Virus record (IMG/VR): IMGVR_UViG_3300027747_004779
Span: 32,001 to 96,000 of that record
DNA length: 64,000 bases
Reading direction: 5' to 3' (one strand)
DNA from: a virus
This document shows positions 2-20,524 of the stretch, piece after piece. The notes below the pieces were generated by a model. That model was given only the letters and a program-made list of their open reading frames with translations. It made no database searches and had not been told where the DNA came from. Within the stretch, counting starts at the first letter, position 1. Every line of letters begins with the position of its first letter. Position numbers and translations under genes: made by a program.

Positions 2-838
2 TGTTGTGCGACCTGATTTAAATATTGGGTCATTTAATGTTAAGTTATTAATTTCTTCTGTAGTAGCAAAATTTATAGGTACGCGAAAAGGTGCGGAAAG
101 TGTATACCAACTATTAGTTCCAATAAGAGAATCATCGAGGTTTACGACTGCAACGTCTACAAAGTTTATATCAGTATCGGTTAACGGATAGCATCTTTTA
201 GTATTGCCAATAATATCTGCAGCGTTGTTTACAATACCACTATCCCATGAAGAGTTTTGATAACAATTAATTAACCTATAAGCAGATGAAGTTGAACCAT
301 AAGTATCACCAGCAAAGAAGAACGGTGTTTCGCTTTCATAATAAGACCCGCCAGGTGCACCTGCAACGTGGTTACAGGTGAGCCCAACCAATTTACCGTC
401 TATAGTATCAACAACAATACCGCCTAAAGTACCAGTGTTCACATACCCATCGGGTGGAGGTGCTGCCATAGACACACCGCCGCTAAGTGGTCTAACTCGA
501 GCACGATTATAGCTTACCGGAGGCGGTACATTCGGTGGAACACTTCTATCGCCGGTATTATAACAATATCCTGTAATAAGTGATATGGGCCTTGCTTCGT
601 ATACATCAGTCTTATATTCTTTATTATCTATTGTAATTGTTGGCGGTACTAAATGTTCTGGTTTTACATATCGATACGTATATTTTTTTTCAACCCCAAA
701 GCGAATAGACAATATGTTAGTGCGTATACTTTTAACTTCTTTATATCCTAAGCTAACTGCAAGAGAGTTATACTTTTTACTTTTATAAAAAGCTAAAAGC
801 TCTTCGCGTACTTTTTTATAATGCGAATTAGTTATCAT
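2..838 (-). CDS. Trypsin-like (S1/NAL1-like) serine protease, 3'-truncated by the window edge; not in the ORF track
   Basis: Manual translation from ATG at 838: MITNSHYKKVREELL...GTLGGIVVDTIDGKLVGLTCNHVAG...NFVDVAVVNL...IFKSGRTT. The frame is open to the window edge. It has the catalytic His (CNHV) and Asp (VDVAV) plus the KxGRTT motif; the catalytic Ser lies outside the window. Confidence 0.75.
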   Translation of the reverse strand, partial: MITNSHYKKVREELLAFYKSKKYNSLAVSLGYKEVKSIRTNILSIRFGVEKKYTYRYVKPEHLVPPTITIDNKEYKTDVYEARPISLITGYCYNTGDRSVPPNVPPPVSYNRARVRPLSGGVSMAAPPPDGYVNTGTLGGIVVDTIDGKLVGLTCNHVAGAPGGSYYESETPFFFAGDTYGSTSSAYRLINCYQNSSWDSGIVNNAADIIGNTKRCYPLTDTDINFVDVAVVNLDDSLIGTNSWYTLSAPFRVPINFATTEEINNLTLNDPIFKSGRTT

Positions 839-839
839 A

Positions 840-1712
840 TTAACTGTAAGTCACAAACTCTACTGTTAGCTGCTCAGGATTTGATGTAGTGGGTGTTACT
901 GAAGGTGTCGGTGTTAATGTCGGTGTAACTGTCGGCGTTGGTGTAACTGTCGGTGTGACTGTCGGTGTCGGGGTCGGGGTATATTTCATTCCGTTTGATG
1001 ACACAGTCTTACTTGTAGTAGAACTAAGCAACAAAAAGTTACTAACATAGTTCGTTCCATCTGTATCAATTTCAAATACCTCAACACTTTTTATTGCTTT
1101 ATCTACGCTACGTGTTAACTGCGCAGTATTAATGAGGTGAAAATCATCAAACTTGAATATAGTATCCGGAATGAGAGTTATTTTAAGATTAAAGATATTA
1201 AGAGAAAGATCTCCGTTAACAACAGTAATTGTCGGATAATATGTCGTACTTAAAAGTGATGTCGGCGTAAAGGTAAAATCAACATTCGTATCTTTTGGAG
1301 AGCCGGGATCTAGTACCGCGGTATTATTTGACAATACATTCTGAACTATACCTTTTTCTATATTCCTAACATTATCATTGCCTTCAAAATCATATAAAAT
1401 CTTCATTATCGCGTAATACGTTTCATCTAGAGCGGATGGGACAATGGTAAGTGTTGTTATTCCCTTGAATAGGCCCAGATCTGCGCTTAAGATTGTATTG
1501 TAAACTGGATAACCCCACGGGAAATAGAGACCTCCGTTAGCTGTAAGCGGAAACACGTATCCACCAGATGTAGTGCTAAAAAAACTGCCATCTGCACTCT
1601 GTGGGTAGTCTATATTTGTACCGAATACCGGGTCGATAAAAAGATAATGATTTATTATGGTCGGGTACTGTATAGTTTGGTAACTAGAGAGTACGTAATT
1701 AATATAATTCAC
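840..1712 (-). CDS. Putative virion structural protein with a short C-terminal Thr/Pro (PTVT) repeat
   Basis: 290-aa ORF, beta-rich, ending TPTPTPTVTPTVTPTPTVTPTLTPTPSVTPT. TAAATA lies 5 nt upstream of the GTG start (late promoter). Confidence 0.5.
   Translation of the reverse strand: MNYINYVLSSYQTIQYPTIINHYLFIDPVFGTNIDYPQSADGSFFSTTSGGYVFPLTANGGLYFPWGYPVYNTILSADLGLFKGITTLTIVPSALDETYYAIMKILYDFEGNDNVRNIEKGIVQNVLSNNTAVLDPGSPKDTNVDFTFTPTSLLSTTYYPTITVVNGDLSLNIFNLKITLIPDTIFKFDDFHLINTAQLTRSVDKAIKSVEVFEIDTDGTNYVSNFLLLSSTTSKTVSSNGMKYTPTPTPTVTPTVTPTPTVTPTLTPTPSVTPTTSNPEQLTVEFVTYS
883..980 (-). repeat. Thr/Pro (PT/PTVT) coding tandem repeat
   Basis: Repeated gtcggt/gtaact units encoding (T-X)n. Confidence 0.85.
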
Positions 1713-1752
1713 ATTATTATTTACTAATAATAGGTATATATACCCGTGAAAA

Positions 1753-4083
1753 CTAACTCTCTTTTCTTAATTCGCTCTTATAATGCGCAAATCTATTATG
1801 TTCTATAGGAGATAGTAATAATACCGCACTGTTTACAGTGCCTTCTTTTGTTAATTGAAAGATATAAGACATCCAAGTTTGTTCAAAAGGATGGGCCCAA
1901 GTAGTTGTTAAAAACATCTTTTTATTACCTTCTCGTGATACAATCTGCGGCCAGTTACAGTAATAAACATCGCCTGTTGCATAGGCTAGACCCTCAAGAG
2001 TTTTAATATTCTTAAATTCAGTCTTTGGTGATTTTGGATCTGTCCCTATTTCAGGAAGTTTACAGTAATTAGGCCAAAACTTTTCACGTATATTCTGTGG
2101 CACATTATACCACGACCATTGTGTGGTGTTATTACCATAAAATTCAGTAAAAGAAAACTTTATAAAGTCCAGCTCTTCCTTATGCATAATTTTATGAATT
2201 TTTGAAAATAGATTAGATACATACCTGGCAAAACCACTCTTACATCTATCACCGTTTTCTTCTAGAAGATACATATCATCCTCTAGAAAAATATAATGCT
2301 TTGCGTCTGTCTTATCAAAATGCTCAGCAATGAATTGTCGACCGCCACATATACCTAGATTATCTTTTTTAATATGCTCAAAATTATACTGCTTACAAAT
2401 TCTCTTATATTCCTCAGTAGTTGACAAATCTGTACTATTATCTAACAAATAATTTGTAGTTTCGGAAATAAATCCTGGGTGTTTGGTATATGACTCGCAA
2501 AGCGTTTCAAATTGTTTCGGTGAATTAAAGGTTATAACATATAAGCTTGTGCCTGCATATTCTTTTACTTTAAGTTTTGCAGCATCTTCAACTTTAGTAT
2601 TTTTTAAATCTTCAAAAAATTTACCAATAAGACCATTTCCATCAATAGAAAATAAACTAAATAAATCGCGATTAAGGTATGTCATAAGAGTGAAAATACT
2701 CTCCTCTGTACCCATATATCCTTCATTAAGAGTCTGTTGCAAGAGCCCGTAATACATTCCGTTAGCTTGACTAATCGTTTCTTTTGGTCCTCCGAAAAAT
2801 CCTCCTCTGCAAACATATTCAACATTTTTTGTTTGCGCAAGTTCATTCATTTTTGTTCTTGTAAATCCATGTATCTCGCCACCCTCGGGATACGGAAAGC
2901 TTATAAACATAAATTTATCAACTATTTTCGAAAGCTTTTCTTGCACTTTATCGTGCGTAAAATACCCCCAGTGCACAGTATTTGTTATACCAGCATCAAT
3001 CCAATAAAATTGTTTAGAGTTAAATGGGTTCCATATTGAAACGTTATTAAGCATAAACATTTTGCTCATAACCAAAGGGTTGTACATTTTTAATTTCGCT
3101 TGCGTCGACTCTGCCAGCCAACCGGCTTGTCCCAGCCATTCAGGCTTTTTGCGTATAGTATCTGTTATATCAGTAAAAGGAAACCATTTTTCGAGTTCCT
3201 GTAAACTCATAGTATTAACTACTGTATTTGATCTACTTCTGTGCTTCCATACCAACTCTTCATCAGCTTTATCAATGAAAATATATAGATTTACAGGTGC
3301 TTTAAGAAGTTCAATAAACTTATCCAAGTACGTCTGATAAGAGCGATGAAAGGATGTACCAATATCTCCTCTTCCTAGATTCCAAAGACCGGTAACGAAC
3401 GTTAGCGAAGAATCAGTTGTTACGGGAAATTTATTTTCTGTTTCTTGTTTCTGTTGTTCTACTTTTTCTGCTATACTGTTTAAATTAATAATAGCTTTAT
3501 GTGGATAATCTTTTTTAATCTCAGTTTCATCAGGTAAATCTATTGTATATATAATTTGATCATTATTTAAAGTATTCTTGTTTAAAAAAACGCCATAATC
3601 ATATCGAACACAAAACGCTGTATAATTTTTATATGTGTCTATAAATTTTCTATAAGTTAATTTATCTTGTACATGTATTTCATGAGTATTACCGTAATGC
3701 TCGCCTTGCGACGCCATAAACGGCACAGCTATTATAACATGTGTTTTAGTATCATCGATCTTGCTTAGTAGTTTTAGAGAATCTTCCTCACTAATATGCT
3801 CTAATACATCGCCAAAAATAATTAAATCATAGGAGTTAAGATCTATATTCGAATTAATTATATTTTCATTAAATACTTTATTATACTTACCTTTGAGTTG
3901 ATAGTCTTCAATATATTTTGCAAATACTTCAACACAATCAAGATTTGTATAACCTAAAGGTTTTAGGAGATTAGAATATGTACCGACACCAGGTCCAACA
4001 TCTAATATTTTTATATCTGTTTTAAAGTTTTTTACAATGTAGTCTAATGTCTCAGTCTTAAAGAAACTCGTAGATACGGGCAT
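1753..4083 (-). CDS. Fusion: class I SAM methyltransferase + HtrL/YibB-like domain + GT-A glycosyltransferase-like domain
   Basis: N-terminal ILDVGPGVG...YDLIIFGDVLEH (SAM MTase); middle TFVTGLWNLGR...SKMFML...FYWIDAG...GGFFGG...EE (HtrL-like); C-terminal YVITFNSP...YIFLEDD (GT-A DxD-like). Confidence 0.7.
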   Translation of the reverse strand: MPVSTSFFKTETLDYIVKNFKTDIKILDVGPGVGTYSNLLKPLGYTNLDCVEVFAKYIEDYQLKGKYNKVFNENIINSNIDLNSYDLIIFGDVLEHISEEDSLKLLSKIDDTKTHVIIAVPFMASQGEHYGNTHEIHVQDKLTYRKFIDTYKNYTAFCVRYDYGVFLNKNTLNNDQIIYTIDLPDETEIKKDYPHKAIINLNSIAEKVEQQKQETENKFPVTTDSSLTFVTGLWNLGRGDIGTSFHRSYQTYLDKFIELLKAPVNLYIFIDKADEELVWKHRSRSNTVVNTMSLQELEKWFPFTDITDTIRKKPEWLGQAGWLAESTQAKLKMYNPLVMSKMFMLNNVSIWNPFNSKQFYWIDAGITNTVHWGYFTHDKVQEKLSKIVDKFMFISFPYPEGGEIHGFTRTKMNELAQTKNVEYVCRGGFFGGPKETISQANGMYYGLLQQTLNEGYMGTEESIFTLMTYLNRDLFSLFSIDGNGLIGKFFEDLKNTKVEDAAKLKVKEYAGTSLYVITFNSPKQFETLCESYTKHPGFISETTNYLLDNSTDLSTTEEYKRICKQYNFEHIKKDNLGICGGRQFIAEHFDKTDAKHYIFLEDDMYLLEENGDRCKSGFARYVSNLFSKIHKIMHKEELDFIKFSFTEFYGNNTTQWSWYNVPQNIREKFWPNYCKLPEIGTDPKSPKTEFKNIKTLEGLAYATGDVYYCNWPQIVSREGNKKMFLTTTWAHPFEQTWMSYIFQLTKEGTVNSAVLLLSPIEHNRFAHYKSELRKES

Positions 4084-4112
4084 ACAATTATATAATTAAC
4101 TTCAAAAAAATA

Positions 4113-5018
4113 TCAAGACGCGGGTAAATCATATATTCTAGTAAAGACCTTATAGAAACTGTCGCCGTCTTTATCTAGTACACTACAACGTTCACCGGGG
4201 GAATGGAAATACCAAGTATAAAACTTATGAAGTTCGAATAATTCTGGATATGCAGAATATAAAGCACTAAAAATTTGCTCTTCAAGTACATGTACATCTT
4301 TTGTTAGAAAATATTTCAATACATCACTGTAAATAGCAAAAAACTGCTTAAATGGTTCTTTATAGCCGCCAAAAAGCCCGCCAATAAGATGATTTGTCAT
4401 TGGTGATACATTTTTCTTGCAGTATTCGGATATAATATGATGAACCGGTGTAGGGTCGCCTTGAAACGGTAAAGAGCAAAAGAAAAGTTTATCCTGGAGA
4501 ATAGAGTTAGATAAATTTTGACTTAATCTGGGGTTAAAGATATTATTCGGATTATTTGGATAATAGTGTGCCGGTGATATTACACTTAACAATTCAACAC
4601 CGCCAACTCTTTCTGGAAAAATACCATGATGTGTAAGCCCGCTATCAATCCAAAAATATTTGTCTGAGGGAAAATAGTTCTTTTCAATAGTATCGTTAAT
4701 CCAGTATGCTTTACTAAAGCAAAGTGTTTCGTTACGATCGTTTAATGTTATTTTTTTTATAATTCTTTTCTTAAATTCTAATGCCGCTTCACAGAACTCA
4801 AAACCGCTAATGTGATGCGGTATAACCTTAAAATCTTTCATATATGCTGACACTCGGCTCTCTACAATAGGTGCATCTTCATGGCTCGTGTAAATTACAA
4901 TAGGGCAATTTAAATTAGCGATATTTCTTAATGAAGAATCAAAAAAAGATACATCCCTTCCACGGCCGCCATAAATTGTATTAATATTATGGCTATAAAT
5001 AGCTGTTACAAGTGTCAT
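4113..5018 (-). CDS. HtrL/YibB-like putative glycosyltransferase
   Basis: TLVTAIY...SKAYWI...YFWIDSG...IGGLFGG...EEQIFS; paralogous to the middle domain of 1753..4083. Confidence 0.65.
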   Translation of the reverse strand: MTLVTAIYSHNINTIYGGRGRDVSFFDSSLRNIANLNCPIVIYTSHEDAPIVESRVSAYMKDFKVIPHHISGFEFCEAALEFKKRIIKKITLNDRNETLCFSKAYWINDTIEKNYFPSDKYFWIDSGLTHHGIFPERVGGVELLSVISPAHYYPNNPNNIFNPRLSQNLSNSILQDKLFFCSLPFQGDPTPVHHIISEYCKKNVSPMTNHLIGGLFGGYKEPFKQFFAIYSDVLKYFLTKDVHVLEEQIFSALYSAYPELFELHKFYTWYFHSPGERCSVLDKDGDSFYKVFTRIYDLPAS

Positions 5019-5746
5019 ATCTCCACTCCAAGCTTACCGTACTTTCTTAAGTTAAGACAATGATCGAAATTTTGCATACTATTTGCAAGAGGATGAATAT
5101 ACGCATTCCATTGATATGTCATTAGATAATGATTTTTATCGTAAGTACCGTTAATGTCCGACTGATTATCGATTTGTGTCACTATAGGATATTTAGCACA
5201 AAAGCTTTTAAATTTAGGATAAATTGCAATGTCAAAATACTGATCTATTGCATTATGCATATGTACGTTTTCTATAATTTCGTTTGTATTCCATTTAGTC
5301 ACCGCTTCTGCTACTCTTCTATTGTAAATAAATCCTGATGTTCCAAATATTCCGCGGTGTCTATTGGGGTCTTTTGGCGGTACATTAGATAAATCTGTTA
5401 AAATACCATCTGGTTTATGTATAGGGCGATGAATCGAGGGAGCAAAGTGAAATAGGTCCCAATCCGTATGGTTTAATGCATTTTCTACATTTTCTAATAA
5501 CACTTTTGCATACGGCATAAAAAACAAATCATCTTCCATGACAATAATATGCTCATCGTTGCTATCTAAAAGCATTTGTGCAATAGCCATGTGCGATAAT
5601 CCGCAGCCAATATAGCTTTTTTTGTCAATACCCTCAAATGCAATAAAATCCCAGCCCATATATTCCATTTCTTTTCTTGAATGCTCAAGTCTATCAGGTC
5701 TTCTTTTAAGGTTTATAATATATTTTTTTATGGAATTAATATTCAT
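5015..5746 (-). CDS. Glycosyltransferase family 25
   Basis: YIINLKRRPDRLE, GCGLSH, IIVMEDD and a downstream AIDQY, typical of GT25. Confidence 0.8.
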   Translation of the reverse strand: MNINSIKKYIINLKRRPDRLEHSRKEMEYMGWDFIAFEGIDKKSYIGCGLSHMAIAQMLLDSNDEHIIVMEDDLFFMPYAKVLLENVENALNHTDWDLFHFAPSIHRPIHKPDGILTDLSNVPPKDPNRHRGIFGTSGFIYNRRVAEAVTKWNTNEIIENVHMHNAIDQYFDIAIYPKFKSFCAKYPIVTQIDNQSDINGTYDKNHYLMTYQWNAYIHPLANSMQNFDHCLNLRKYGKLGVEI

Positions 5747-6501
5747 GTATTATACCTTAGATTACTTATATCATAATGCCCTCTACGGTGAACAAAAATA
5801 ACAGCGTCATTCTGCATAGCTGTCTGTAAAGTTCTTGTAAAATCTGTCCAGTAGCCATATCTATCGATATCCTGTTTTTTACAGTTATACCGTGATACCA
5901 ATATAGAATATACACTCTGATCATGTCTATGATTCTCTTCATCTCCTACTACACAGCCTTCAATTTTAGAATACTCAAAGGCTTCATTTATTAAAGACTG
6001 GTATTTACCTCGAGACTTATACCCTAAAATACCTGAAGATATAATTGTATCATTAAGCTCACCGTCTGTAGCATTCATTATTTCACGACATTTCTTTTTT
6101 GTAAATGTGCATGTTAAATGAACGTCACCGACTACAAAAATCTCTTCTTTTTCAATAATATCAAACATCTCTTTTATGTCTTTTAATAACATTACACCTG
6201 CATCAAGCCATAATACGTTGTTACCGTAATTTTGCGCATCGTATACGCAAAATAATTTATACGCGTGACCGCTAGGTAATAGATAGTTTTTGTAAGGTAG
6301 CGGGGATAAGCTAGAGAAATTAAGTAGTGTTACTTTTTGTATTTTTGAAAGTATAGACTTATTTTCTTCATCTAAATTTAAGTCGTAAACAAATATTTGA
6401 TCAACAGTATCAAAACTATGTTGATGTATACTACTTATTAATGTCTTTAGCGATTCAAAATAAAGATCGTTAGCTGCTGTAATTACAATGTTTCTATACA
6501 T
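5743..6501 (-). CDS. DUF1647-like putative glycosyltransferase (GT-A fold)
   Basis: VITAANDLYF...VYDLNL...YK...VLWLDAG...HRHDQSVYSIL. Confidence 0.6.
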   Translation of the reverse strand: MYRNIVITAANDLYFESLKTLISSIHQHSFDTVDQIFVYDLNLDEENKSILSKIQKVTLLNFSSLSPLPYKNYLLPSGHAYKLFCVYDAQNYGNNVLWLDAGVMLLKDIKEMFDIIEKEEIFVVGDVHLTCTFTKKKCREIMNATDGELNDTIISSGILGYKSRGKYQSLINEAFEYSKIEGCVVGDEENHRHDQSVYSILVSRYNCKKQDIDRYGYWTDFTRTLQTAMQNDAVIFVHRRGHYDISNLRYNT

Positions 6502-7289
6502 TTCTGTATTAAATGCTCGGGGTGAATATACTGTTTTGCTTTTTCAAAATTTTCTTTCACGCTATCGAGCATGGATAAATATAATTCAGGTGTGAGTGTA
6601 GATAATATTTCTGGCAATTGTTCCGGGTCTTTAAAACGTAAAATGCTTGTTGTATTGAAATATTTTTCAATTGCCGGACATCCTAGATAAATAGGAATTG
6701 TACCGGTTAAGAGACAATCTAATAATTTTTCTGTAAAATAATCTTCTTCTTCACTATTTTCAACTACAATAGAAAAATAAAAATCTTTATGTGCTTCTAT
6801 TTTGTATGGAATTCGATTATTGCAACCGCTGCCAAAGAAAGAAATATTAGTAGTTGTTTTTAACATATCATAAATTCTGTGTCGCTGTCTATGGTAACCG
6901 TTCCACTGCTTATCTGAAAAAAGAAAACTCATTAACTGTGTTTTTGGGTATATTTCTAATTCATTCTGCCTTAGCCACGTACCACCGTGAGGTATAAATT
7001 TGAAGTTGTTAATTTTTGTTTCTATATTTCTATAGTAAGAAAATACATATTTAAATTTCTCATAATTTTTAATAATATTATTATAATTGTCGCCGTTAAT
7101 AATAGGTGGCTCTATTATCCATGCATAGTTTTGCTTTGTATTATCTATTGGTTGGTTAAAGCAAAATTTATCTGTATATATACCAATATCATAATCTGCT
7201 ATTTCACGTTGCCAGCCTACCTGCGGGTCAATATAAGGGCAAAGCCCAGGCTGACCTAATAAATTTTCATCAAAAAATCTTATATTCAT
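6483..7289 (-). CDS. Glycosyltransferase family 10 (alpha-1,3/4-fucosyltransferase-like)
   Basis: GT10 signature FYFSIVVENSEEEDYFTEKLLDCLLTGTIPIYLG. Confidence 0.85.
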   Translation of the reverse strand: MNIRFFDENLLGQPGLCPYIDPQVGWQREIADYDIGIYTDKFCFNQPIDNTKQNYAWIIEPPIINGDNYNNIIKNYEKFKYVFSYYRNIETKINNFKFIPHGGTWLRQNELEIYPKTQLMSFLFSDKQWNGYHRQRHRIYDMLKTTTNISFFGSGCNNRIPYKIEAHKDFYFSIVVENSEEEDYFTEKLLDCLLTGTIPIYLGCPAIEKYFNTTSILRFKDPEQLPEILSTLTPELYLSMLDSVKENFEKAKQYIHPEHLIQKCIETL

Positions 7290-7290
7290 A

Positions 7291-7944
7291 TTAGTTTTTT
7301 ATAAAAATATCGTCTACGTCTAAAGATTTAATATGTGTAAAGCCTTTCTCTACTAAAAAATTCCTTATTTTTTCATCTTTATAGTTATTTTCTAAAGAAA
7401 TAGCAAATATATTGACTTTATTAAAATCGATAGTTTTTAAGACCTTTAATTCATTACCTTCTGTATCTAATGACAAGAAATCTATAGAGCTAATATTATG
7501 CTTATCTAAAAGCGTTTGAAGCGTTACAGTCTTAACTTTTATGATTTCTTTACTACCACCATAATGATGTATTTCGCCGTCTATTCTCCCTACATGCTTA
7601 GGTTCATATTCTTTAACTAGCCCGCTTAGCATCTCAGCGTAGCCATGCACTAATAAAAAATCATCTTCACCTTCATTATCTGATATTGCATAATTTTCAC
7701 ATATACATTTTCTATTAGCTTTTAACTGATCAAATATATTAGGTATTGGTTCAACGCAAAGACCTGTCCAACCAATCGATTCAAAATACTTACTATTTGA
7801 ATATGTAATGCCGTCGTGGGCCCCCACATCTACAAACACACCAGCTTGCTTGTTTTTAAAATATGTGTCGTTTAAATACCTATCTTGACCTAATTGGCTA
7901 CAATAATCCACAACAGTATTTATTAATAGTTGATTTCTGGCCAC
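7291..7944 (-). CDS. FkbM-family methyltransferase
   Basis: SQLGQD, FVDVGAHDGITYSNS, GLCVEP, IDFLSLDTEGNELKVL. Confidence 0.9.
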   Translation of the reverse strand: MARNQLLINTVVDYCSQLGQDRYLNDTYFKNKQAGVFVDVGAHDGITYSNSKYFESIGWTGLCVEPIPNIFDQLKANRKCICENYAISDNEGEDDFLLVHGYAEMLSGLVKEYEPKHVGRIDGEIHHYGGSKEIIKVKTVTLQTLLDKHNISSIDFLSLDTEGNELKVLKTIDFNKVNIFAISLENNYKDEKIRNFLVEKGFTHIKSLDVDDIFIKN

Positions 7945-8465
7945 TGAACTGATGTATATTTTTTAACTTCTTTAAGCAGTTGTTCGGTAGTCTCGAGACT
8001 CTCCTCTGCAAGAGCGCGCCAATGCCATTCGATATTTAATTCTGTTATAATAGACATATTATCATCTTGTATAAGTTTTCTAAGAACGCTATATTCTGCA
8101 CCTTCTATATCCATCTTAACAAAAACACGATCTCTACCTCTAAATTGCGAAATAAATTTAGAAAAGTCAATAGTTTCTATGGTTTGCTGAATAGAATAAG
8201 GTTGCTTAGAACTAAGAGATTCGAGAGTTGATCCTTCACCGATACCCTCACAGTTAAAAACACTTTCACCATCAGCTATCCAGACAGCTTTATTAAACGC
8301 GGTGATTTTCCACGGATGTTGACTTATTCTCTCTTGAATTTTACAGAGCGGGTTAGCTTCAAATGCATATGTTTCCCAATCGCCATGTTGACATCCACAC
8401 CACTCACCAATTGCAGCCATTTTTTCGCCAAAATGATAGCCGCAATCGATAAAGACTTTATTCAC
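7923..8465 (-). CDS. FkbM-family methyltransferase
   Basis: FIDCGYHFG, YAFEANP, KAVW, VFVKMDIEGAEYSVL, IEWH. Confidence 0.85.
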   Translation of the reverse strand: MNKVFIDCGYHFGEKMAAIGEWCGCQHGDWETYAFEANPLCKIQERISQHPWKITAFNKAVWIADGESVFNCEGIGEGSTLESLSSKQPYSIQQTIETIDFSKFISQFRGRDRVFVKMDIEGAEYSVLRKLIQDDNMSIITELNIEWHWRALAEESLETTEQLLKEVKKYTSVQWPEINY

Positions 8466-8468
8466 TAG

Positions 8469-9740
8469 TTAACTTACAGTATTATGTAGCTGGCCTGTAA
8501 TAGGTTCACACCATCCTTTACTAACACTATGCGGCCAAACAATCCAGCTAGAAGGCAATACATCTGTGTTAAATTCTCTCCAAACTTTGCAATAGTTGTC
8601 TGGGTCTTTTAACATTCTGTCTATCTCTGCTTTATCTGCATCTTTTCTATAAAGATCTTTTCCGGCTTTATCTTTAAAAGCAACACACCAAAAATCATAG
8701 TCTTTTTCAGGAACTTGTTGATACCCTACATCAATACAATGCTTAAAAATACTAAGAAACGATTTTTCATACTCTTCTTTAGTTAAATTATTGTTAGGAT
8801 TTGGTGGGTAATTACGTTCAAGTGTATGTTTTTGTATAGCGCGCTTCTTAAACGAAAGACCAGAATATCTTTCATAGTCTTCTAATGTACGGATTTTACC
8901 GAAATCATATTTTCCAAAATCGATATCTTTCTTTAATCCGTCCATTTGAAAGAGCTTTCTGTTTCTTAAGTGAGACTCCTCATTCCATTTACCCCAGCTC
9001 TTACTGTCATCCCAGTGTTTGGTCCTACCTTTTCTGGTATATTCGTGCCAAGCAATCACCATATGAGGGTGGAAGAGATCATAGCCCCAAGTGTATGATC
9101 TAACAGCAAGATTAATCTCCTCGCCATGAAAATAATAATATGGATCATATGGTACTTCTTTAACCCATTTTCCGAGAGTAAAAATAAAATGAGCTGATAC
9201 AAAGCGTGAAGGTACAGGCTCGGTTCGTTCTTTAAAGTCATCTATTGAAGCCGGTAAGAAAAATACAGCACCTTCAGGGATAAATCTATCAAAATCCATC
9301 TTCCATGGGATATGAATTCTTGCTTGTGGGTCATTATCTGGATCGAAGCTCGAAATATAGCCGGTCAAAAGGGGCTTTTTATGACCTTTCTTTTGAAGCT
9401 GCTTAACCATATCTATACACTTTACATCCCAGTCCTTAACAAAGCGGTGGTGGCTATCTAATTGTAGGTAATACTTCTCACCATTGTAATTTTTCTGTAT
9501 CTCACTGCGGGCCCAGCAAGTGCCGCGACTATCTTGATAAGGAATGTCAATAACTTTAACTCGTGGATCTTTAGCAAACTCTTCTAACGACTCTGTATCA
9601 TCACGCTGCCAACAAATACTAAATACTAAATTTTCTGGATTCTTAGCATTAGCAATACAATCTTTTAAGGTTGGAACTAGTTGCGGATCTCTATAAGAGG
9701 CAATGGAAATAAATATTTTGTCAGCTTTAGATTTACTCAT
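8469..9740 (-). CDS. GT60-family polypeptide alpha-GlcNAc transferase (Gnt1/Gnt2-like)
   Basis: IFISIASYRDPQL, GTCWARS, GEKYYLQLDSHHRFVKDWD (DSH motif), VPYDP...FHGEEI..AVRSYTWGYDLFHP. Preceded by a sigma70-like promoter. Confidence 0.85.
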   Translation of the reverse strand: MSKSKADKIFISIASYRDPQLVPTLKDCIANAKNPENLVFSICWQRDDTESLEEFAKDPRVKVIDIPYQDSRGTCWARSEIQKNYNGEKYYLQLDSHHRFVKDWDVKCIDMVKQLQKKGHKKPLLTGYISSFDPDNDPQARIHIPWKMDFDRFIPEGAVFFLPASIDDFKERTEPVPSRFVSAHFIFTLGKWVKEVPYDPYYYFHGEEINLAVRSYTWGYDLFHPHMVIAWHEYTRKGRTKHWDDSKSWGKWNEESHLRNRKLFQMDGLKKDIDFGKYDFGKIRTLEDYERYSGLSFKKRAIQKHTLERNYPPNPNNNLTKEEYEKSFLSIFKHCIDVGYQQVPEKDYDFWCVAFKDKAGKDLYRKDADKAEIDRMLKDPDNYCKVWREFNTDVLPSSWIVWPHSVSKGWCEPITGQLHNTVS

Positions 9741-9746
9741 TTAGTT

Positions 9747-9774
9747 ATTTTATACGATAACATTAATAAATCAA
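9747..9774 (-). promoter_or_regulatory. Sigma70-like promoter (TTGATT-N16-TAAAAT), 6 nt upstream of the GT60 ATG
   Basis: Same geometry as upstream of gp41, uvsX, gp45 and gp61. Confidence 0.6.
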
Positions 9775-9782
9775 TAACAAGC

Positions 9783-11492
9783 TTAAGGTTTCGAACGCGA
9801 AGGTGTATTCGTCGGTGTGCGGGTAAGTGTTGGCGTAGGTGTTCGCGTCGGTGTCTGCGTTCTTGTGGGTGTTTGTGTTGGGGTATGTGTTCTAGTAGGT
9901 GTCTGCGTAGGTGTTAATGTCTGCGTTATAGTAGATGTTGGAGTTGGTGTACGGAAAGGCGTAAATGAAGGTGTCTGAGTCGGTGTATTAGATGGCGTCA
10001 CTGTTGGTGTTTGTGTATTGGTTGGCGTCCCAGTAGGTGTTTGTGTTTGTGTTCTAGTAGGCGTCTGTGTGGGCGTTGATGTACGCGTTGGTGTATTAGT
10101 TGGTGTTCTTGTAGGTGTCTGTGTTCTCGTAGGTGTCTGTGTTCTCGTAGGTGTCTGTGTATTGGTTGGCGTGACAGAAGGTGTTCTCGTTGGTGTTTGT
10201 GTCTTTGACGGGGTAACAGAAGGTGTTATCGTATTAGTAGGTGTCTTAGTTGGCGTTCGTGTTTGTGTTGGTGTATTTGTAGGTGTAACGGAAGGAGTTT
10301 GTGTATTTGACGGTGTTACAGATGGTGTTTGTGTATGTGATGGTGTCACAGACGGTGTTATCGTGTTAGTAGGTGTCTTAGTTGGCGTTCGTGTTTGTGT
10401 TGGTGTATTTGTAGGTGTCTCAGAAGGTGTTGGCGTATTGGTAGGTGTCTCAGAAGGCGTTTGTGTCTGTGACGGGCTAACAGAAGGTGTTGGTGTAATA
10501 GTGGGTGTCTCAGAAGGCGTTTGTGTCTGTGACGGGCTAACAGAAGGTGTTGGTGTATTGGTAGGTGTCTCAGAAGGTGTTGGTGTTTGTGTAAGTGTTG
10601 ATGTATATGTCAATGTAACAGACGGTGTTTGAGTTGGTGTTTGTGTTTGAGTTGGTGTTTGTGTTGGTGTCGGTGTTTGTGTTGGCGTCTGTGTAGGTGT
10701 ACTAGTATGTGATGGTGTTACAGAAGGTGTTTGTGTATGCGATGGTGTCACAGACGGTGTTTGTGTTTGCGTCGGTGTTTGCGTCGGTGTTTGTGTTGGG
10801 GTGACAAAAAAGCCATTTTCATTAATATTTCTAACTGCGAATACTGTATTTTTATCGCTATTACTAAACCCTATGCATGGATATACTGTAGGTGGCATTT
10901 CAGCGGGCATGTTGATATCAAATATGTTATAAAATTTGTTATTAATCTTATGATCGAGAATAATATTTTTTCCGAAATTGGACACTGTTAATCTAAACAC
11001 TCGATATGCAGGTATTGCAGGTGACTGACGGTAAAGATAAAACGGTTCATCGAACTTTGAGCTTGCTAGATTTTCAGTACGATGAATTAATGAATATCCA
11101 GATTCGTAGTTGCCTCTTACGCTAACTGTATTAGAAGCCGGTTCTGCATAACCATCTAGCGGCCAGAAATTAGATCCGAAATTTCCTGTAATATCAAAGC
11201 CAACAACAAGGCTTGCGTTTACAACTCCAGGAAAATAAACAAACCCCGCTTCGCCAGATACTCCAACAATTTCCGTTGCGCCTAATGCTGGACCTGGTCC
11301 ACCGGTTCTACCTGTTGATTGAAGGTTTCTACAGTCAACAAAAAATAGTGAAAAGCCTTCAGCCCCGCTTAATGTATCGCCATAGCAAGCGTACTCTAAT
11401 GATACTATAAAATCTTTGGAAGTATCAATGGTCTTGTAATCATATACAACAGATGTACGATCTTGTGGGCTAAATGAATAAAATAATGCCAT
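9783..11492 (-). CDS. L-type-lectin-like domain + ~340-aa Thr/Pro mucin-like tail; probable virion appendage
   Basis: N-terminal ~230 aa with GAEGFSLFF...GGPGPALG...LVVGFDITGNF (legume/bacterial lectin-like). The C-terminus has Thr/Ser at almost every second residue. Last gene of the baseplate gene run. Confidence 0.6.
   Translation of the reverse strand: MALFYSFSPQDRTSVVYDYKTIDTSKDFIVSLEYACYGDTLSGAEGFSLFFVDCRNLQSTGRTGGPGPALGATEIVGVSGEAGFVYFPGVVNASLVVGFDITGNFGSNFWPLDGYAEPASNTVSVRGNYESGYSLIHRTENLASSKFDEPFYLYRQSPAIPAYRVFRLTVSNFGKNIILDHKINNKFYNIFDINMPAEMPPTVYPCIGFSNSDKNTVFAVRNINENGFFVTPTQTPTQTPTQTQTPSVTPSHTQTPSVTPSHTSTPTQTPTQTPTPTQTPTQTQTPTQTPSVTLTYTSTLTQTPTPSETPTNTPTPSVSPSQTQTPSETPTITPTPSVSPSQTQTPSETPTNTPTPSETPTNTPTQTRTPTKTPTNTITPSVTPSHTQTPSVTPSNTQTPSVTPTNTPTQTRTPTKTPTNTITPSVTPSKTQTPTRTPSVTPTNTQTPTRTQTPTRTQTPTRTPTNTPTRTSTPTQTPTRTQTQTPTGTPTNTQTPTVTPSNTPTQTPSFTPFRTPTPTSTITQTLTPTQTPTRTHTPTQTPTRTQTPTRTPTPTLTRTPTNTPSRSKP
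9790..10802 (-). repeat. ~1 kb Thr/Pro coding low-complexity tandem repeat with near-exact internal duplications
   Basis: 60-bp near-identical units at 10441-10500 and 10501-10560; a ~65-bp duplication at ~10221 and ~10353; 18-bp gtaggtgtctgtgttctc units at 10111-10160. Confidence 0.95.
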
Positions 11493-11494
11493 AT

Positions 11495-14400
11495 TTAAAC
11501 TCCAAAAATAAATGCGTCTCCTATTACACTCCCTGCAGCAGATCCTATAATTGTATATGTTGAATATCCGGAAAACGGTGGTGCATATGAGAAGTTTATA
11601 CTATTAACATCTGTAGTCAACTTAAACATATTATTGCTTATGTTTGTAATAACACCGTTTACATACTTAAAGAATGTCTTATAAATATAAAATAAATTAG
11701 AAAGATCTTTGCCAAGATATGAAATACAATATGTTTCTGTTTCATCGTCAAACGTAACTATTGGCTTTTCAATACTTACAATATTGAGATTAATATCTTT
11801 CCCTAATAGTGAATAATCTTTAATGTCTTCAAAAGTTAGATCTTCTTTATTTTTTTCGGGGTAAAGCTTTGTATAAGTCAATTTATCCATGTTAACGGTA
11901 TAAATTTCAGGATATATTGCTTTATAATTAGTCGAACTTAATTCATAGTATAAGACAGTTCGGCAGAAGAAGAGATTATTATTCATCTCATCGAACCATA
12001 CTGTGGATGTCTTTTCGAACTCCTTTACATCACCTTTGCTAAAGAAGCAATCATTGCGTGTAGTAGTTTTAATTGTATTATTTTCATTATCAAAAATAAT
12101 TTTATCAAATATTAAGTAGTTTTCTGTTTCGAGCTGTATTGTGTCGTAATAAAGATCAAAGTCAATTAATTTTTCTCTTAATTCAGTTTGCATTTCTAGA
12201 CTATACTTGTCATATATGCGTGAAAGAGAGGAAGAAGCTGGAAGATAGAGTGATGAATTAGCATTTCTAAAATAAAGATCACCGTATTCAACAAATCTTG
12301 CATCGTAAATTGTTTTTCTCCTTGACAGACCGGAAAGCCCTTCGACTACTTGCGTCTTTCTATTTGGTACATGATAATTCATGAAATTACTTGGCTCATC
12401 ATATCTAACTACAAACGCTGTTACGTCGCCGCAAGGTGCGGCGCTATTTACCCAGAATAAATTACCGTTTAAAGGAACATAAGTTGATAATGCTACAGTC
12501 GATGTAAAAAGTCCCGGGTAAGCAAAATTAGCTCTAAAGTCGGGTAATATGCTTGTGGGGTTAGTAGCGCCGTCGATTAACTCACCGTAGTAAACATCAG
12601 CATTTGCAGGGTCAAAATCTGGATCGTCAGAAGATTGATCAGGCAACAACCCACTTCCTGGTGAAACAAACGTCACACCATCAAGAGTAGTGCAGAAATA
12701 TATTGTTTCTAGTGCCCCGGGGCAAAATGTTTCAGGCTGAAATCTATATGATGCTACTGGTGTTGCTTTACCTGAAAGCGTATAAGATGGCGCTCCGCTA
12801 TTATACTCTGTAAATGTTGGAGGATAATCTTCAGGAAAGGGTATAAACGACCCCGGAGGCGGGTTGCCATATGGGTTCCATGTATATCCGTTAAAAGCAG
12901 GAGTGTAATAACCAGAGCCTGGGGGTATAGCATTAGCAGTTCTAAAAGTTACGCCAGAATAGCCAAGATCTGCATCTTCTATAGAATAGTTAAAGTTATA
13001 ACCAGAAATAGGGTCATAAAAGGTATGGCCGTCAAGTGATAAACAGAAAAAGAATTTTAAGTTACCGTTATCTGTACGTTCATTTGCCGGTACTTTCGGC
13101 GGATGTATATCTTTATACATAGTATACTCATTACCATAGACGTCGTTTTTATATTGTACAGCGGTCTTATTAAGAGAATATAGCTTTTCAATTCTGCTAT
13201 CTAGAGGAAATACATTTTGTGGTAATAACGGAAACACATCATTATTAGCCCAGAGTGATTTTACATCACCTTTAAAGAACTCCTGCGGATCTGTATAGCG
13301 GGCTAACCCTGCTACTGATGCATCTAATGTTTGCTCTCTACTTTGATATCCTCGAAATGTTTGAAAATATGAATTTGTTTCTGAATCGCCAAACCTATAT
13401 TGATTTGAAAAATCAATTTTATTAAAATAATTAAGTTCATTATATATTAAAGGCGAATTAAACTCTTCTTTTGTTAGCCCAGATACATTACCATATTTTG
13501 ATGGATCAGGAAAAATATATACTGTATTAGCGCTAAGTGAACTCTCGTTTATAACGGCATTAAGACCGAAATTAGTAAAGTTTGAAAACCCTATCTTATC
13601 TGGCTTAAAGAAAAGACCAATCTCTTTAGCTGTTTGTATAAAATCTTGGCTTTGTACAGCTGCTACAGCGGGATATCTTTTATTAAGATAATTTGCAAAT
13701 TCGTTTTTTGCAGAAAACAGTGCACCGGATACATAGCTTGTTGCAGTAGCTCCTGTCGATACATAATAAAAATCTGTACCGATAAACTTTTCTATTAATA
13801 CAGCTTGATTGTTTAGGTTTAAATTATCAGACGTCTGAGTATTGATCGTATTAATAAAGTCACTATCTTTAAGAAAATTAAGCTGTGTGCTATCTACTTG
13901 AGGTGTAATTGTAAAACTATCACCAAACTCAATAAGATAAAAAGGATATGATGTAATCGCTTGTACAATGGCGGTATTAAAATCTAGAAAGAGATTAGGA
14001 TCAATACCGTATTGATTTAAGCTAAAATACTTATATGCAGGGTCAGATGGAGATAACCCGTATGAAGATGCGGGTAGGTTAGCACTAGTGTCTAGATAGT
14101 CATTAAAATTATCGTATAGATCTTCGATATCGATAACCATACTGTTACGAATATCTGAAAGAGAGAGATTCAAGGTGCGAATTAAGTCAGTAAGGTCTTC
14201 TGTTTCTAAGGATTTAGATATTTCGTTATAAATTAATTTACTAACCCCGAAGTTTGACCCTTTAAGATTATACCTTAAATCAGCAGTCCGTACATCATCA
14301 CGCAACGTACTATAGTATAAGCATATGTCTTTAATTTTTTGTGCGAAAAACGGAATTGCTACTGCAAGATCTCTATTGTTATTAAAATCAATATTTTTTA

Positions 14401-14701
14401 GCCAGCGTCTTTCGTCCGTTGTTGTGTGAGTTAGTACTATTTCTTTTATAAGTGAAACATACAACGAGCGTGTTACGTCTACTTGTTCAATAGATTGATA
14501 ATTTTTTGTTTCATACCAGTTATTCAGGTAAGACTGATATCTCTGTAAGAAATCATTAGCATTAGTAAATAAACTATTATTATACTTGACCCACTCCTGA
14601 AATGTTAAAGGTTCTGTCTTGTCTATTGGTGATGTAGAGGGGGTAAGAGATGTTATAGATACATCTAGGCGTTCATCGATAAATCTACTTGACTCAAACA
14701 T
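11495..14701 (-). CDS. Large virion structural protein (baseplate-associated, possibly gp7-like)
   Basis: 1068 aa, downstream of gp25/gp6; a YNLKGS motif resembles gp7/wedge proteins; TAAATA 5 nt upstream of the ATG. Confidence 0.45.
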   Translation of the reverse strand: MFESSRFIDERLDVSITSLTPSTSPIDKTEPLTFQEWVKYNNSLFTNANDFLQRYQSYLNNWYETKNYQSIEQVDVTRSLYVSLIKEIVLTHTTTDERRWLKNIDFNNNRDLAVAIPFFAQKIKDICLYYSTLRDDVRTADLRYNLKGSNFGVSKLIYNEISKSLETEDLTDLIRTLNLSLSDIRNSMVIDIEDLYDNFNDYLDTSANLPASSYGLSPSDPAYKYFSLNQYGIDPNLFLDFNTAIVQAITSYPFYLIEFGDSFTITPQVDSTQLNFLKDSDFINTINTQTSDNLNLNNQAVLIEKFIGTDFYYVSTGATATSYVSGALFSAKNEFANYLNKRYPAVAAVQSQDFIQTAKEIGLFFKPDKIGFSNFTNFGLNAVINESSLSANTVYIFPDPSKYGNVSGLTKEEFNSPLIYNELNYFNKIDFSNQYRFGDSETNSYFQTFRGYQSREQTLDASVAGLARYTDPQEFFKGDVKSLWANNDVFPLLPQNVFPLDSRIEKLYSLNKTAVQYKNDVYGNEYTMYKDIHPPKVPANERTDNGNLKFFFCLSLDGHTFYDPISGYNFNYSIEDADLGYSGVTFRTANAIPPGSGYYTPAFNGYTWNPYGNPPPGSFIPFPEDYPPTFTEYNSGAPSYTLSGKATPVASYRFQPETFCPGALETIYFCTTLDGVTFVSPGSGLLPDQSSDDPDFDPANADVYYGELIDGATNPTSILPDFRANFAYPGLFTSTVALSTYVPLNGNLFWVNSAAPCGDVTAFVVRYDEPSNFMNYHVPNRKTQVVEGLSGLSRRKTIYDARFVEYGDLYFRNANSSLYLPASSSLSRIYDKYSLEMQTELREKLIDFDLYYDTIQLETENYLIFDKIIFDNENNTIKTTTRNDCFFSKGDVKEFEKTSTVWFDEMNNNLFFCRTVLYYELSSTNYKAIYPEIYTVNMDKLTYTKLYPEKNKEDLTFEDIKDYSLLGKDINLNIVSIEKPIVTFDDETETYCISYLGKDLSNLFYIYKTFFKYVNGVITNISNNMFKLTTDVNSINFSYAPPFSGYSTYTIIGSAAGSVIGDAFIFGV

Positions 14702-14709
14702 TAAAATAT

Positions 14710-17700
14710 TTAATTATTATATACAATGTCGCTACCACTTAAGAACAATCTAAGCCCTTTTGTGAGCTCATAGCTTAGCAGACTTTGCATAATACCACTG
14801 TTTTTACTCCATTCTTGAAAAGAGCTATTCGTATAGCTAACAGTAGTCATAGGGTTATTCCAATCAATAATATTATTATAGTGAGATCCTTCATAAAACG
14901 GTGTATATTCATAAAATTTGTAATAATCTGATATCCTACTACCTACAAGTGTTCTTGGCGCAATAAGTCCCCAGCCCCAGTCGTATGTATAGTCTGATAA
15001 CTGTACTGTTTCACCATATTTTATACCGGGTATTTCGACAAAGTTTACTAATGTATAGTTTCCAGAGAAAATTTCATATGCTACAACCGGTACGCCAGAT
15101 GATATCGTGCTTGTGAGGGTTGAGTATTCAGTTCCGAGATTGAGCTGTAGGCTATTATCAACAGTATATGCATTTTTATAAAAGCTTTGTGCAAATTTGT
15201 TACGCTCACCCCAAAGATTTTTATGTTTAATAGATAGAATATTTACTAAACGTAAAAGCTGGGGTGGGAAAGGATAATTATACTGTTCAAATTGAATTGA
15301 AAGTTCTTTACAAAATGAAAGTAATTGATCTAGGTTTACTTTATCAATATCGTCGATATTACTTGTAAAATTAGCTATCTTTTCGTAGATTGTCTTTCCT
15401 AATTCATATGGTTGAGCGCTAGCGCCCCCGACTATTGTTCCTAAGAAATCATTAAAAAATATTTTCTTTTCTTCTAAACTTTCTGTAAAGATTAATGACT
15501 TATAAAACCCTTCTGCGTTAAAATCTTCATTAACTTTTGAGAGACCATATTGCCCGCTAACGGGGTAGATGTTAAATAAATTACTCTGACCGGTGAGAAG
15601 ACGAGTCGTAGTCTGCGGTACCATATGTTTATTGATCCATCTTCCTCCTAGCCAATCGCCGTATGCTTGAAAACTTTTTTCTTCAAACGTTGATAGCTCT
15701 TTTATTGAAATGGATGGGTATAACAGATCTAAGCTTTCATATCCATATCCATCCACAGCTGACACCGGGGGAGCATATGTATCAATGAAATACATTTTGT
15801 TGGTAAAGGTGTTTATTACCCATATGAAGTCTGATGAATCACATGCAATGCCACCTATACTACAGATATAATTCGTCCTGTTACCTGATCCTGCAATGTA
15901 ATTTGTCAAAGAGCCGTCAATGCCGCTGACGCGAGTTAATGTATCTCTATCCTGAACTACCCATGCGTTTTGTAAGCTATCAACTGTAATATCTCCTATA
16001 AACCTAAATCCTGAAAGTGGATAACCTGAAACAAGGGCACCTTCTGAAGTAAATTTATACAAATAATCGTTTTTACCTGTTAACGTTGTAGCGTGGGTAT
16101 CTTGTGCATAGTTAAATGCGGTAACCCATACGTACCTATTTCTATCTACTACTGCTTCTTGAGGGGCGATAAGTGAAGGAAACGGTATAACCGTAAGTAA
16201 AGTACCATAGGTATCATATTTTATTAAAAAGTTTGATATCGGGTGATTATATGTTACCCAAAGGTTATCTTCATAATCTGTATCTAATGACGATGGAAGT
16301 AAACTATTTTCACCTGCAAATCCGGACAAATAGGGAATATTGTAGTCAGAACTCAAATAATACGTATAATTAGTAAAATTTGGATAAGCGACTGCCTTTA
16401 CGTAACCTTGCGACGCGTCTATCTTAACACATGAAACAGAATCAAAAAGAGCGACCCAGACGTCACACTTACCGTCTAGTGAAAGGCTTCCAGGTGCAGC
16501 GCTAGAAAGAATAGGCGAGAGAAGATTTGTTGTTATTATTTGACCTCCGCTAAGAACAGGATAAGCTGACATAGGGAAAGATGATAACATCTTACCATTT
16601 ACATCAAACTTAAATAATGTATCTCGTGTACCGTCGGCAAACCATGTTTGATAATCATTACCAGGCCCGGCACCAGAAGGAGCGACTTGAATTGCATATA
16701 CGTTTCTGTTATTTTTTGCATCAAAAAACTTTTCATCAGCAGAAATTGTAAGAGAAAGATATCCGGAGCAGTAATCATAAATTTCCTGTCTAAAAAATCT
16801 TAGTAGTACATTATATTGCGGTACAGCAATCCACCCAAACAAGACATCTTTTGGATAATTAGCAGGATCATCAATTACCATCGATGCTGTTAAAATACAG
16901 TTAAGCGTCTCATTAGGTATAGTAAAATAACCTTTATAAAACGCACCTATTGATTGCGGTATATTGGTTTCAAAATCTTCATAATATATCACATCGGGAA
17001 CTTCTATGTTTCCGTTGTCTGTTTGCTGTATAATACCGAACTTTACATTAAACGCACTTAGAGAACTTAATTTAGGGTGGGTAGTTGAAGAAGAGAGTGG
17101 AGGGTATGTTTTAGTGGTAAAATTATCTTTGTCTTTCATCCTTATAACGAAAGGAATTTCTGTGTTTTGCCAGCTTATTTCGGGTAAATTAAACTTGGTT
17201 GATGAAAGAGTGCCTTCACCATCGATGCCTGTCGTCGAAATAGAAAGGTCAGTTGCAGGATTATGCCTAATTTTAATAATAGGCAATACAGCGGGTTTAA
17301 TATTTTGATATCCGTATGGTGGATACGGTAGATATTCGTACGAATTTTTATATTGTGTGTACTGGTCATTAAATTTTGCATTATCTAAAGTAGCAAATAT
17401 AAAAATAGGAGGTTCACGCGATGTAAAGTTTTTAACTCTATCATCAACATAATAAAAACTGCAAGAACCTGTTGTACCTACAAATACGCTACCCTCATCG
17501 TCTTTAGAGCAATATTGTAAATGATTATTAACTATGTTGGCATATATTTCAGTGTTGCTTGTTTTAATTTTTTCAACAAGAGCATATTCATACGTATCGC
17601 CGACGGGAATTTTTTCATAAAATCGACTTAATTTGCGAAGATGAGACCATTTATCATTATAAAAATTTTCAACATTTTGGTAATCGCCTATAGCTCCTGA

Positions 17701-20031: not shown

Positions 20032-20511
20032 TTAATTAAAGAAGAATCCTGAATTACTTAATGTACCAACAAGCTTAAAACTACTACTTGTGTCAATAGT
20101 AATCATTGTTATTATAAGTGTAATAATGTACTGTTGGTTCACTTCATCAGATTGCACGTTTATTGTTTTGACGCGTACACGAGGTTCAAATTTGTTAATA
20201 CCGTCTAAAATTTCATTACCAATACTATACCCCACGGCTTCGCTTATAGGGTTAAATAGGTATCTTTGTAGATTCAACCCAAACGTTGGGTTTAAGATAC
20301 GTTGACCGGGTACTGTATTAAAGAGATTAAAAATAGAATTTCTAACTGCGGCATAATCGTAGTCGATCTTAAGATCTCTTATTTCTTTTCTCTTAAGAAA
20401 TTCATTGTTTCTTGTATAATCAAACTGTAGGTCGAGCTCTAAATCCGTATATGTATATTTACTTGTAGATTTACTTGGTTCTGCAATTGATTCAACTTTA
20501 ATTGTGGCCAC
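20032..20511 (-). CDS. gp25: Baseplate wedge / sheath initiator, T4 gp25-like
   Basis: YTDLEL...AVRNSIFNLFNTVPGQRILNPTFG..L...LF...I...EPRV. Confidence 0.9.
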   Translation of the reverse strand: MATIKVESIAEPSKSTSKYTYTDLELDLQFDYTRNNEFLKRKEIRDLKIDYDYAAVRNSIFNLFNTVPGQRILNPTFGLNLQRYLFNPISEAVGYSIGNEILDGINKFEPRVRVKTINVQSDEVNQQYIITLIITMITIDTSSSFKLVGTLSNSGFFFN

Positions 20512-20516: not shown

Positions 20517-20524
20517 TATTTATA
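20517..20524 (-). promoter_or_regulatory. T4-type late promoter TATAAATA, 5 nt upstream of the gp25 start
   Basis: Exact T4 late consensus; the gp55 late sigma factor is encoded in this window. Confidence 0.75.

Follow-up and report, generated by a model that had tools for sequence, protein, structure and literature searches.

A glycosyltransferase cassette beside T4-like structural genes

The window analysed here is a stretch of 64,000 nucleotides, positions 32001-96000 of a 157,857-bp viral record in IMG/VR (IMGVR_UViG_3300027747_004779) to which CheckV assigns a completeness of 74%; what is said below to be missing from the genome is said of that 74%-complete record. Between positions 840 and 11492 the minus strand carries nine enzyme genes or domains in one orientation, tightly packed, with an enzyme of glycosyltransferase family GT60 in the lead position. 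The original prediction, made from the sequence alone, took this cassette for a phage-encoded system of mucin-type O-glycosylation that acts on virion proteins rich in threonine and proline, and placed such proteins on both sides of it. The flanking is confirmed: a 569-residue and a 290-residue protein, both with Thr/Pro tracts, border the cassette.

The GT60 enzyme, the candidate initiator

The assignment to GT60, for which a check against profile models had been proposed, is secure: the protein scores 242.8 bits against PF11397 (cut-off 21) and covers positions 2-44 and 95-351 of the 352 in the model. Characterised GT60 enzymes are polypeptide alpha-N-acetylglucosamine (GlcNAc) transferases acting on mucin-type Thr/Ser or on the hydroxyproline of Skp1 (PMC8724618, PMC6939170). 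The AlphaFold2 model of the phage protein (predicted local distance difference test, pLDDT, 82.5) has a GT-A fold and a DxH-type metal motif, D95-S96-H97, which is invariant across 11 homologues. The top 29 PDB entries matched by this model are GT27 polypeptide N-acetylgalactosamine (ppGalNAc) transferases, with Z of 18.7-21.8 over ~280 residues, and generic GT-A enzymes such as SpsA rank below them (Z at most 16.8); no solved Gnt1 structure is among the matches listed. Fold comparison alone was informative, PDB searches with the sequence, single or as a profile, having yielded no usable match.

The protein begins directly with its catalytic domain. It has no hydrophobic segment (the highest 19-residue Kyte-Doolittle mean is 0.75) and no type II membrane anchor, and it ends in an additional beta-rich part of ~120 residues that belongs to no Pfam family. 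Homologues are found in cultured phages: XacN1, Xoo-sp13, Stenotrophomonas CM1 and RAS14. Some related phages have two tandem GT60 paralogues (L023:8748-11227, L031:8745-11266).

The Thr/Pro proteins, candidate acceptors

The 569-residue protein (9783-11492) consists of a globular head and a long tail. The tail is 41% Thr, 21% Pro, 10% Gln and 9% Ser, with 168/172 Thr/Ser at alternate positions, and at the DNA level it consists of degenerate tandem repeats, each period being a multiple of 6 bp. The head (residues 1-225), which has no Pfam match, is modelled by AlphaFold2 as an L-type lectin sandwich (pLDDT 86.9); its top PDB folds in Foldseek are ERGIC-53, VIP36 and legume lectins (E 4e-8, template modelling score 0.5-0.55). 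On the other side of the cassette, the 290-residue protein carries the tract TPTPTVTPTV; its homologues in related phages have longer tracts and RCC1 domains, and ESM Atlas searches with its N-domain gave weak leads only (at most 0.79). The gene that follows encodes a 1421-residue protein with a protease-like head, Thr/Pro tracts at residues 430-753 and 859-1065, and an RCC1 propeller (Pfam).

The flanking pair that was originally proposed as the substrate stands as part of a larger set of candidates. Six open reading frames (ORFs) in the genome have Thr/Pro tracts, ~1,800 tract residues together, and four of the six lie outside the interval 840-11492. Five are found between 20.7 and 43.6 kb of the genome, around the cassette and beside a protein with tail-fibre PHROG matches; the sixth, a leucine-rich-repeat (LRR)/Gly-rich protein, comes after the portal gene. 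In relatives, the N-terminal domain and the tract of these proteins are retained and the distal domains vary (RCC1 propellers, P-domain), a layout that we take to be typical of phage fibre and receptor-binding proteins.

Several smaller observations concern the tracts. In two GT60-negative relatives (L434:13093-14562 and L435:13117-14586) the lectin-like head passes straight into a C-terminal domain and a Thr/Pro tract is absent. The tract imposes a strong local GC and AT skew, and a 204-residue open frame of Val-Gly repeats opposite the tail (10018-10632, plus strand) is the repeat's shadow, not a gene. ACA dominates among the Thr codons of the tracts (401 of 672; its share in other large genes is 51%), and the phage has a tRNA-Thr with anticodon UGU at 7373-7455 of the genome (L045), outside the window, which may for that reason aid translation of the tracts.

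Co-occurrence of GT60 and Thr/Pro tracts

If the tracts are what GT60 acts on, the two should travel together, and the original prediction had named their co-occurrence across related genomes as a check. Three samples of viral loci and one of bacterial loci bear on it.

In 41 IMG/VR loci whose GT60 is 40-81% identical to that of the window, a tract-bearing ORF lies within 10 kb of GT60 in 30. It is the ORF directly upstream in ~22 of the 41, among them a clade in which identity to the GT60 of the window is as low as 42%.

A lineage-matched set was built on the conserved 1068-residue structural protein encoded upstream of the lectin-headed protein. An alignment query fetched 76 loci with a homologue of this marker (a single-protein query gave 3 only); of these, the 50 in which downstream DNA extended for at least 6 kb were scored together with the window. 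Tracts were scored by a protein-level criterion; the DNA pattern misses the Thr-rich tracts of L432 and L436, and counting these raises the number of exceptions from 3 to 5. GT60 is accompanied by tracts in 21 members and stands without them in none; five members have tracts alone and 25 have neither, so that 25 of the 30 GT60-negative members are also free of tracts. The raw association has a Fisher p of 7e-10. On the marker tree GT60 requires 3 changes and the tracts 4, giving three independent contrasts that never run in opposite directions.

The reverse sample consisted of viral contigs of at least 30 kb picked solely for a (TPxx)4 pattern in their DNA, with controls picked for the reversed pattern. 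PF11397 is encoded by 11 of 39 Thr-Pro-pattern contigs and by 0 of 33 controls (Fisher p 0.0006), the controls being smaller on average. Ten of the 11 GT60-positive contigs, one of them a complete genome of 321 kb, lack the marker protein and are therefore from other kinds of phage.

GT60 relatives are also present in bacterial genomes, at least 586 of them. Among the best 80, a Thr/Pro ORF lies within 8 kb in 40, and directly upstream on the same strand in at least 13; the loci come from Gemmatimonadota, Acidobacteriota, Verrucomicrobiota, Bacteroidota, Proteobacteria and others. As comparisons of sequence, these tests support the view that Thr/Pro tracts are putative substrates of GT60, in bacteria as in phages.

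Xanthomonas phage XacN1

One of the cultured phages offers a view of the virion. ORF334 of XacN1 is a GT60 homologue, 46% identical to that of the window. A few genes separate it from a baseplate wedge gene and from the gene of a giant protein that includes a Thr-Pro tract, and the Thr-Pro pattern matches the XacN1 genome 43 times, the reversed pattern 0 times. Purified XacN1 virions show at least two Schiff-stained glycoprotein bands (PMC5852040, Supplementary Fig. S4), which the authors suggested are made by the phage's own glycosyltransferases; they identified neither the stained bands nor the GT60 family nor the tracts (PMC5852040). XacN1 resembles the window phage in the placing of GT60 near a baseplate wedge gene and in its many Thr-Pro tracts. 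It differs in being a 385-kb jumbo phage, and in the neighbours of its GT60, an adjoining carbamoyltransferase gene and a GT9 gene.

The remainder of the cassette and its structural context

Coordinates and assignments are collected in the table below. The families originally proposed are borne out by Pfam and PHROGs for GT60, the two FkbM proteins, GT10, GT25, HtrL and the fusion; the DUF1647-like label is not, its match falling below threshold. (The protein in question has a homologue of 57% identity in the cassette of L031.) No NCBIfam model matches GT60, GT10, GT25 or the GT8-like protein.

Features of the window on which the analysis draws
Feature	Position	Strand	Basis
N-terminal part of 1421-aa protein, extends past window start	2..838	-	phrog_20754
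290-aa protein, conserved N-domain and short PTVT tract (~873-971)	840..1712	-	translation
776-aa fusion: class-I S-adenosylmethionine (SAM) methyltransferase, HtrL_YibB and C-terminal GT-like domains	1753..4083	-	Pfam; phrog_842, E 2e-5
HtrL/YibB-family protein	4113..5018	-	PF09612 (HtrL_YibB), E 4e-8; TIGR02192 below cut-off
GT25 glycosyltransferase	5015..5746	-	PF01755, E 3e-14; phrog_2835
GT8/DUF1647-like putative glycosyltransferase, weak assignment	5743..6501	-	PF01501, E 0.002, and PF07801, E 0.003, both below cut-offs
GT10-like glycosyltransferase	6483..7289	-	PF00852, E 2e-12
FkbM-family methyltransferase, 217 aa	7291..7944	-	PF05050, E 2e-23
FkbM-family methyltransferase, 180 aa	7923..8465	-	PF05050, E 9e-11
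GT60 soluble polypeptide HexNAc-transferase-like enzyme, candidate initiator	8469..9740	-	PF11397, E 1e-71
344-aa Thr-X/Thr-Pro tail of 569-aa protein, candidate acceptor	9783..10817	-	composition; tandem repeats; phrog_15511 match
L-type lectin-fold N-terminal domain of 569-aa protein	10818..11492	-	AlphaFold2 and Foldseek
1068-aa conserved structural protein, lineage marker	11495..14701	-	76 related loci, 25-98% identity
1155-aa structural protein with PKD domain	14710..18177	-	PF18911, E 2e-10; syntenic in relatives
gp6-like baseplate wedge protein	18177..20030	-	phrog_219 baseplate wedge subunit, E 1e-43
gp25-like baseplate wedge protein	20032..20511	-	PF04965 GPW_gp25, E 1e-13
T4-type late promoter motif TATAAATA	20517..20524	-	directly before gp25

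Two ends of the cassette are constant and its middle is not. In all relatives with a GT60 at least 50% identical to that of the window, and with DNA that reaches far enough, the fusion is present too, and the genes between GT60 and fusion differ even among close relatives, in which a rhamnosyl-O-methyltransferase-like protein, other FkbM or GT10 proteins, a PLOD-type glycosyltransferase domain or a carbamoyltransferase may be found. This variability fits a strain-dependent tailoring of the glycan. Nearly the same downstream cassette (GT10, GT8-like, GT25, HtrL, fusion) occurs in L031, a phage without the window's baseplate module. Elsewhere in the genome, at 106189-107142 (L459:1489-2442), a dTDP-glucose 4,6-dehydratase (TIGR01181, 381 bits, above the equivalog cut-off) is encoded next to a PhoH-like gene and a weakly matching QueE-like radical SAM gene; this enzyme might supply the cassette with 6-deoxy sugar.

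The uncultured phage is T4-like on the strength of its gp25, gp6, gp20 portal and gp44 clamp-loader homologues (Pfam, PHROGs), with the gp44-type clamp loader in the window (PF21328) and the portal elsewhere in the genome (PF07230, E 1e-104). No isolated phage was matched by the region in megablast, and identity of the gp6-like protein to cyanophage gp6 does not exceed 26% (tblastn). G+C content is ~36%. The minus strand carries every gene between 20511 and 2, with gaps of 0-42 bp or slight overlaps, in the order gp25, gp6-like, the 1155-residue PKD protein, the 1068-residue marker and the 569-residue lectin/Thr-Pro protein, then the cassette, and after it the 290-residue PTVT protein and the start of the 1421-residue protein. 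In GT60-positive relatives the marker gene is always just upstream of the lectin/Thr-Pro gene.

The proposed setting among structural genes is upheld by this order. The further proposal that these are late-promoter gene runs is thinly supported: the motif before gp25 is the sole exact minus-strand copy of TATAAATA in positions 1-21000, and no enrichment of the motif is seen in the window. The operon structure is read from gene packing only, because scans for T4 late promoters, sigma-70 promoters and terminators showed no excess over shuffles.

O-glycosylation of phage stalks and the alternatives

The reading that we favour, with a probability of about 0.6, is a phage-encoded, cytoplasmic O-glycosylation of the phage's own Thr/Pro stalks. 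Its observed basis is the gene content, the folds, the solubility of the enzymes, the structural-module context and the co-occurrence of GT60 with Thr/Pro tracts across lineages. Acceptor, donor sugar, glycan structure, virion incorporation and benefit to the phage are what we infer from these, along the following lines. The products of the cassette would be made alongside the structural proteins, and at the same time. Late in infection the soluble GT60 would place an N-acetylhexosamine (HexNAc), probably GlcNAc, from a uridine diphosphate (UDP)-sugar on Thr and Ser hydroxyls of the long tracts in six modular proteins, which between them present the lectin-fold head, RCC1 propellers, the LRR/Gly-rich domain and the protease-like head. 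GT10, GT25, the GT8-like, HtrL-like and fusion enzymes would extend this sugar, and the FkbM and class-I methyltransferases would methylate it. Baseplate or fibre proteins would thereby acquire mucin-like stalks or brushes, stiff and resistant to proteases. The O-glycan interpretation of the original prediction is supported in part, by enzyme families, tracts, structural context, the comparative link and the Schiff-positive bands of XacN1; its 'baseplate appendages' are read from gene order only, and shielding, adhesion and mimicry are conjectured roles.

Several points count against this reading. Like the baseplate status, the incorporation of the Thr/Pro proteins into virions is deduced from gene order alone. 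At several GT60 loci the nearest 10 kb are free of tracts; when the whole contigs of five such loci were searched, a 98%-complete contig proved to have a ~180-residue tract 46 kb off, a 53%-complete one a 16-residue tract only, and three fragmentary ones none. Conversely, L405, L409, L414, L432 and L436 have tracts and no PF11397 on their contigs, which are 11-36% complete. Once relatedness is counted, the association within the lineage is not significant (sign test p 0.25), because three contrasts are too few. Finally, GT25, GT10 and HtrL are best known from lipopolysaccharide (LPS) synthesis, and the C-terminal domain of the fusion weakly resembles DNA-glucosylating enzymes.

The cassette might instead remodel a glycan of the host cell surface (LPS core, O-antigen or capsule), against superinfection for example, with the tracts as unglycosylated flexible linkers that merely share a mobile fibre region with it. 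Pfam descriptions place GT25, GT10 and HtrL/YibB mainly in LPS loci, glycosyltransferase clusters of T4-like cyanophages are usually read in this way (PMC12801897), and the dTDP-glucose 4,6-dehydratase of the genome would suit such a role. We nevertheless think it unlikely. No cassette protein has a membrane segment, and Pfam finds in the cassette no flippase, polymerase or lipid-carrier priming enzyme, so that it does not have the make-up of an LPS-modifying or seroconversion locus; the lead enzyme is from a family that acts on protein, the cassette sits among late structural genes, and GT60 follows Thr/Pro tracts into unrelated phages and bacteria. A related possibility is that GT60 glycosylates a different protein, either a factor of the host or a phage protein at a site outside repeats, the link with tracts then being one of shared modular inheritance. 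There is precedent in Gnt1-type GT60, which modifies a single hydroxyproline of one protein, Skp1 (PMC6939170), and both the GT60 loci without a nearby tract and the tract-bearing relatives without GT60 on the available DNA would be accommodated. This too we consider improbable, for linkage alone hardly explains a direct adjacency that recurs in many bacterial phyla and in phages without the baseplate marker; moreover, no prolyl 4-hydroxylase of family PF13640 was found in the record (other oxygenase families were not searched).

Phage glycosyltransferases often modify DNA, and the cassette might serve to hypermodify the phage genome with sugars, as T-even glucosyltransferases do, in evasion of restriction. 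The C-terminus of the fusion does match a PHROG of the T-even beta-glucosyl-hydroxymethylcytosine alpha-glucosyltransferase, at E 2e-5, and a TET-associated glycosyltransferase, at E 0.06. But no thymidylate-synthase-like hydroxymethylase (PF00303) was found in the 74%-complete record, the fold of GT60 is nearest to the peptide-acting GT27, and location among structural genes and association with Thr/Pro tracts would be left without explanation; of the alternatives we hold this one to be very improbable.

O-glycosylation of Thr/Pro stalks lends itself to a wider and distinctly tentative proposal: that its initiation by GT60 is widespread in prokaryotes and their phages and is not a speciality of protists, and that a conserved initiator and a conserved fusion bracket swappable extending, methylating and carbamoylating enzymes, so that close relatives would show different fibre glycans, a kind of 'phage serotype' under diversifying selection. 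The lectin-headed 569-residue protein might itself read such glycans.

Relation to known systems

The GT60 enzymes of Dictyostelium and Trypanosoma cruzi share with the phage enzyme the PF11397 domain, a DxH-type motif and the lack of a ricin-like lectin domain, and the mucin initiators among them act in a setting of dense Thr/Ser/Pro repeats, the presumed acceptors in the phage. The phage enzyme differs from the mucin-type protist enzymes in being soluble, with no signal anchor, in that it would act in a bacterial cytoplasm, and in its extra C-terminal ~120 residues. The Gnt1/Skp1 pathway of Dictyostelium and Toxoplasma is a further parallel, a cytoplasmic soluble GT60 being followed there by further soluble glycosyltransferases; the phage departs from it in that PF13640 was not found in the record and that its candidate acceptors comprise hundreds of residues rather than one site. 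Animal GT27 enzymes are the best structural matches to the phage model (Z up to 21.8), with an identical DSH motif of the metal-binding type. They belong, however, to another CAZy family, are 12-16% identical, and are type II membrane proteins of the Golgi with a ricin lectin domain.

Parallels to the remainder of the scheme exist as well. The chlorovirus PBCV-1 encodes glycosyltransferases that are soluble, one of them a multidomain enzyme that includes a sugar methyltransferase domain; the capsid glycans of this virus are N-linked and its host is a eukaryote. The Pro/Thr linkers of bacterial and fungal cellulases are O-glycosylated, extended and protected from proteases; these linkers are short, and the cell itself glycosylates them.

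Among phages, mycobacteriophages decorate their own virion proteins with their own glycosyltransferases, according to the summary of Freeman et al. 2023 in PMC12619734, and in this they resemble the system proposed here. The glycans summarised there are on the C-termini of capsid and tail-tube subunits of actinobacterial siphophages, whereas the candidate acceptors of the window phage are baseplate or fibre Thr/Pro stalks and its lead enzyme is a GT60. Virion glycosylation by mycobacteriophage enzymes and GT60 in protists are thus already known, and glycosylation of the XacN1 virion has been suspected. In our literature searches no paper connected GT60 with Thr/Pro proteins, whether of phages or of bacteria, and nothing relevant turned up on GT60 or Gnt1 together with phage; one review of viral O-glycosylation does not mention phages.

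Were the favoured reading correct, tailed phages of hosts of the Gram-negative type would be makers of mucin-like glycoproteins, by means of an enzyme family so far characterised in protists only, and the known range of the mucin-initiating GT60/GT27 enzymes would extend to bacteria and phages. The glycosyltransferase clusters of large aquatic phages, usually annotated as modifying host surface or DNA, would have to be annotated differently, and a glycan layer would be added to phage adsorption, stability and recognition.

Other features of the record

Upstream of the baseplate genes, at 23112-25205 of the window (minus strand), a 697-residue protein has a lytic transglycosylase (SLT) domain and is possibly a cell-puncturing or tail lysozyme protein. 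IMG/VR labels the record a provirus, yet it has a T4-like architecture, and only phage-type genes occupy the 12 kb at the 3' end; G+C climbs to 0.42-0.44 across the last 8 kb. At ~152.1-155.5 kb of the genome (L458:6129-9491), after a fibre protein with an S74 chaperone domain, lie six tandem paralogues of ~180 residues, three of which have weak matches to phage tail-collar domains.

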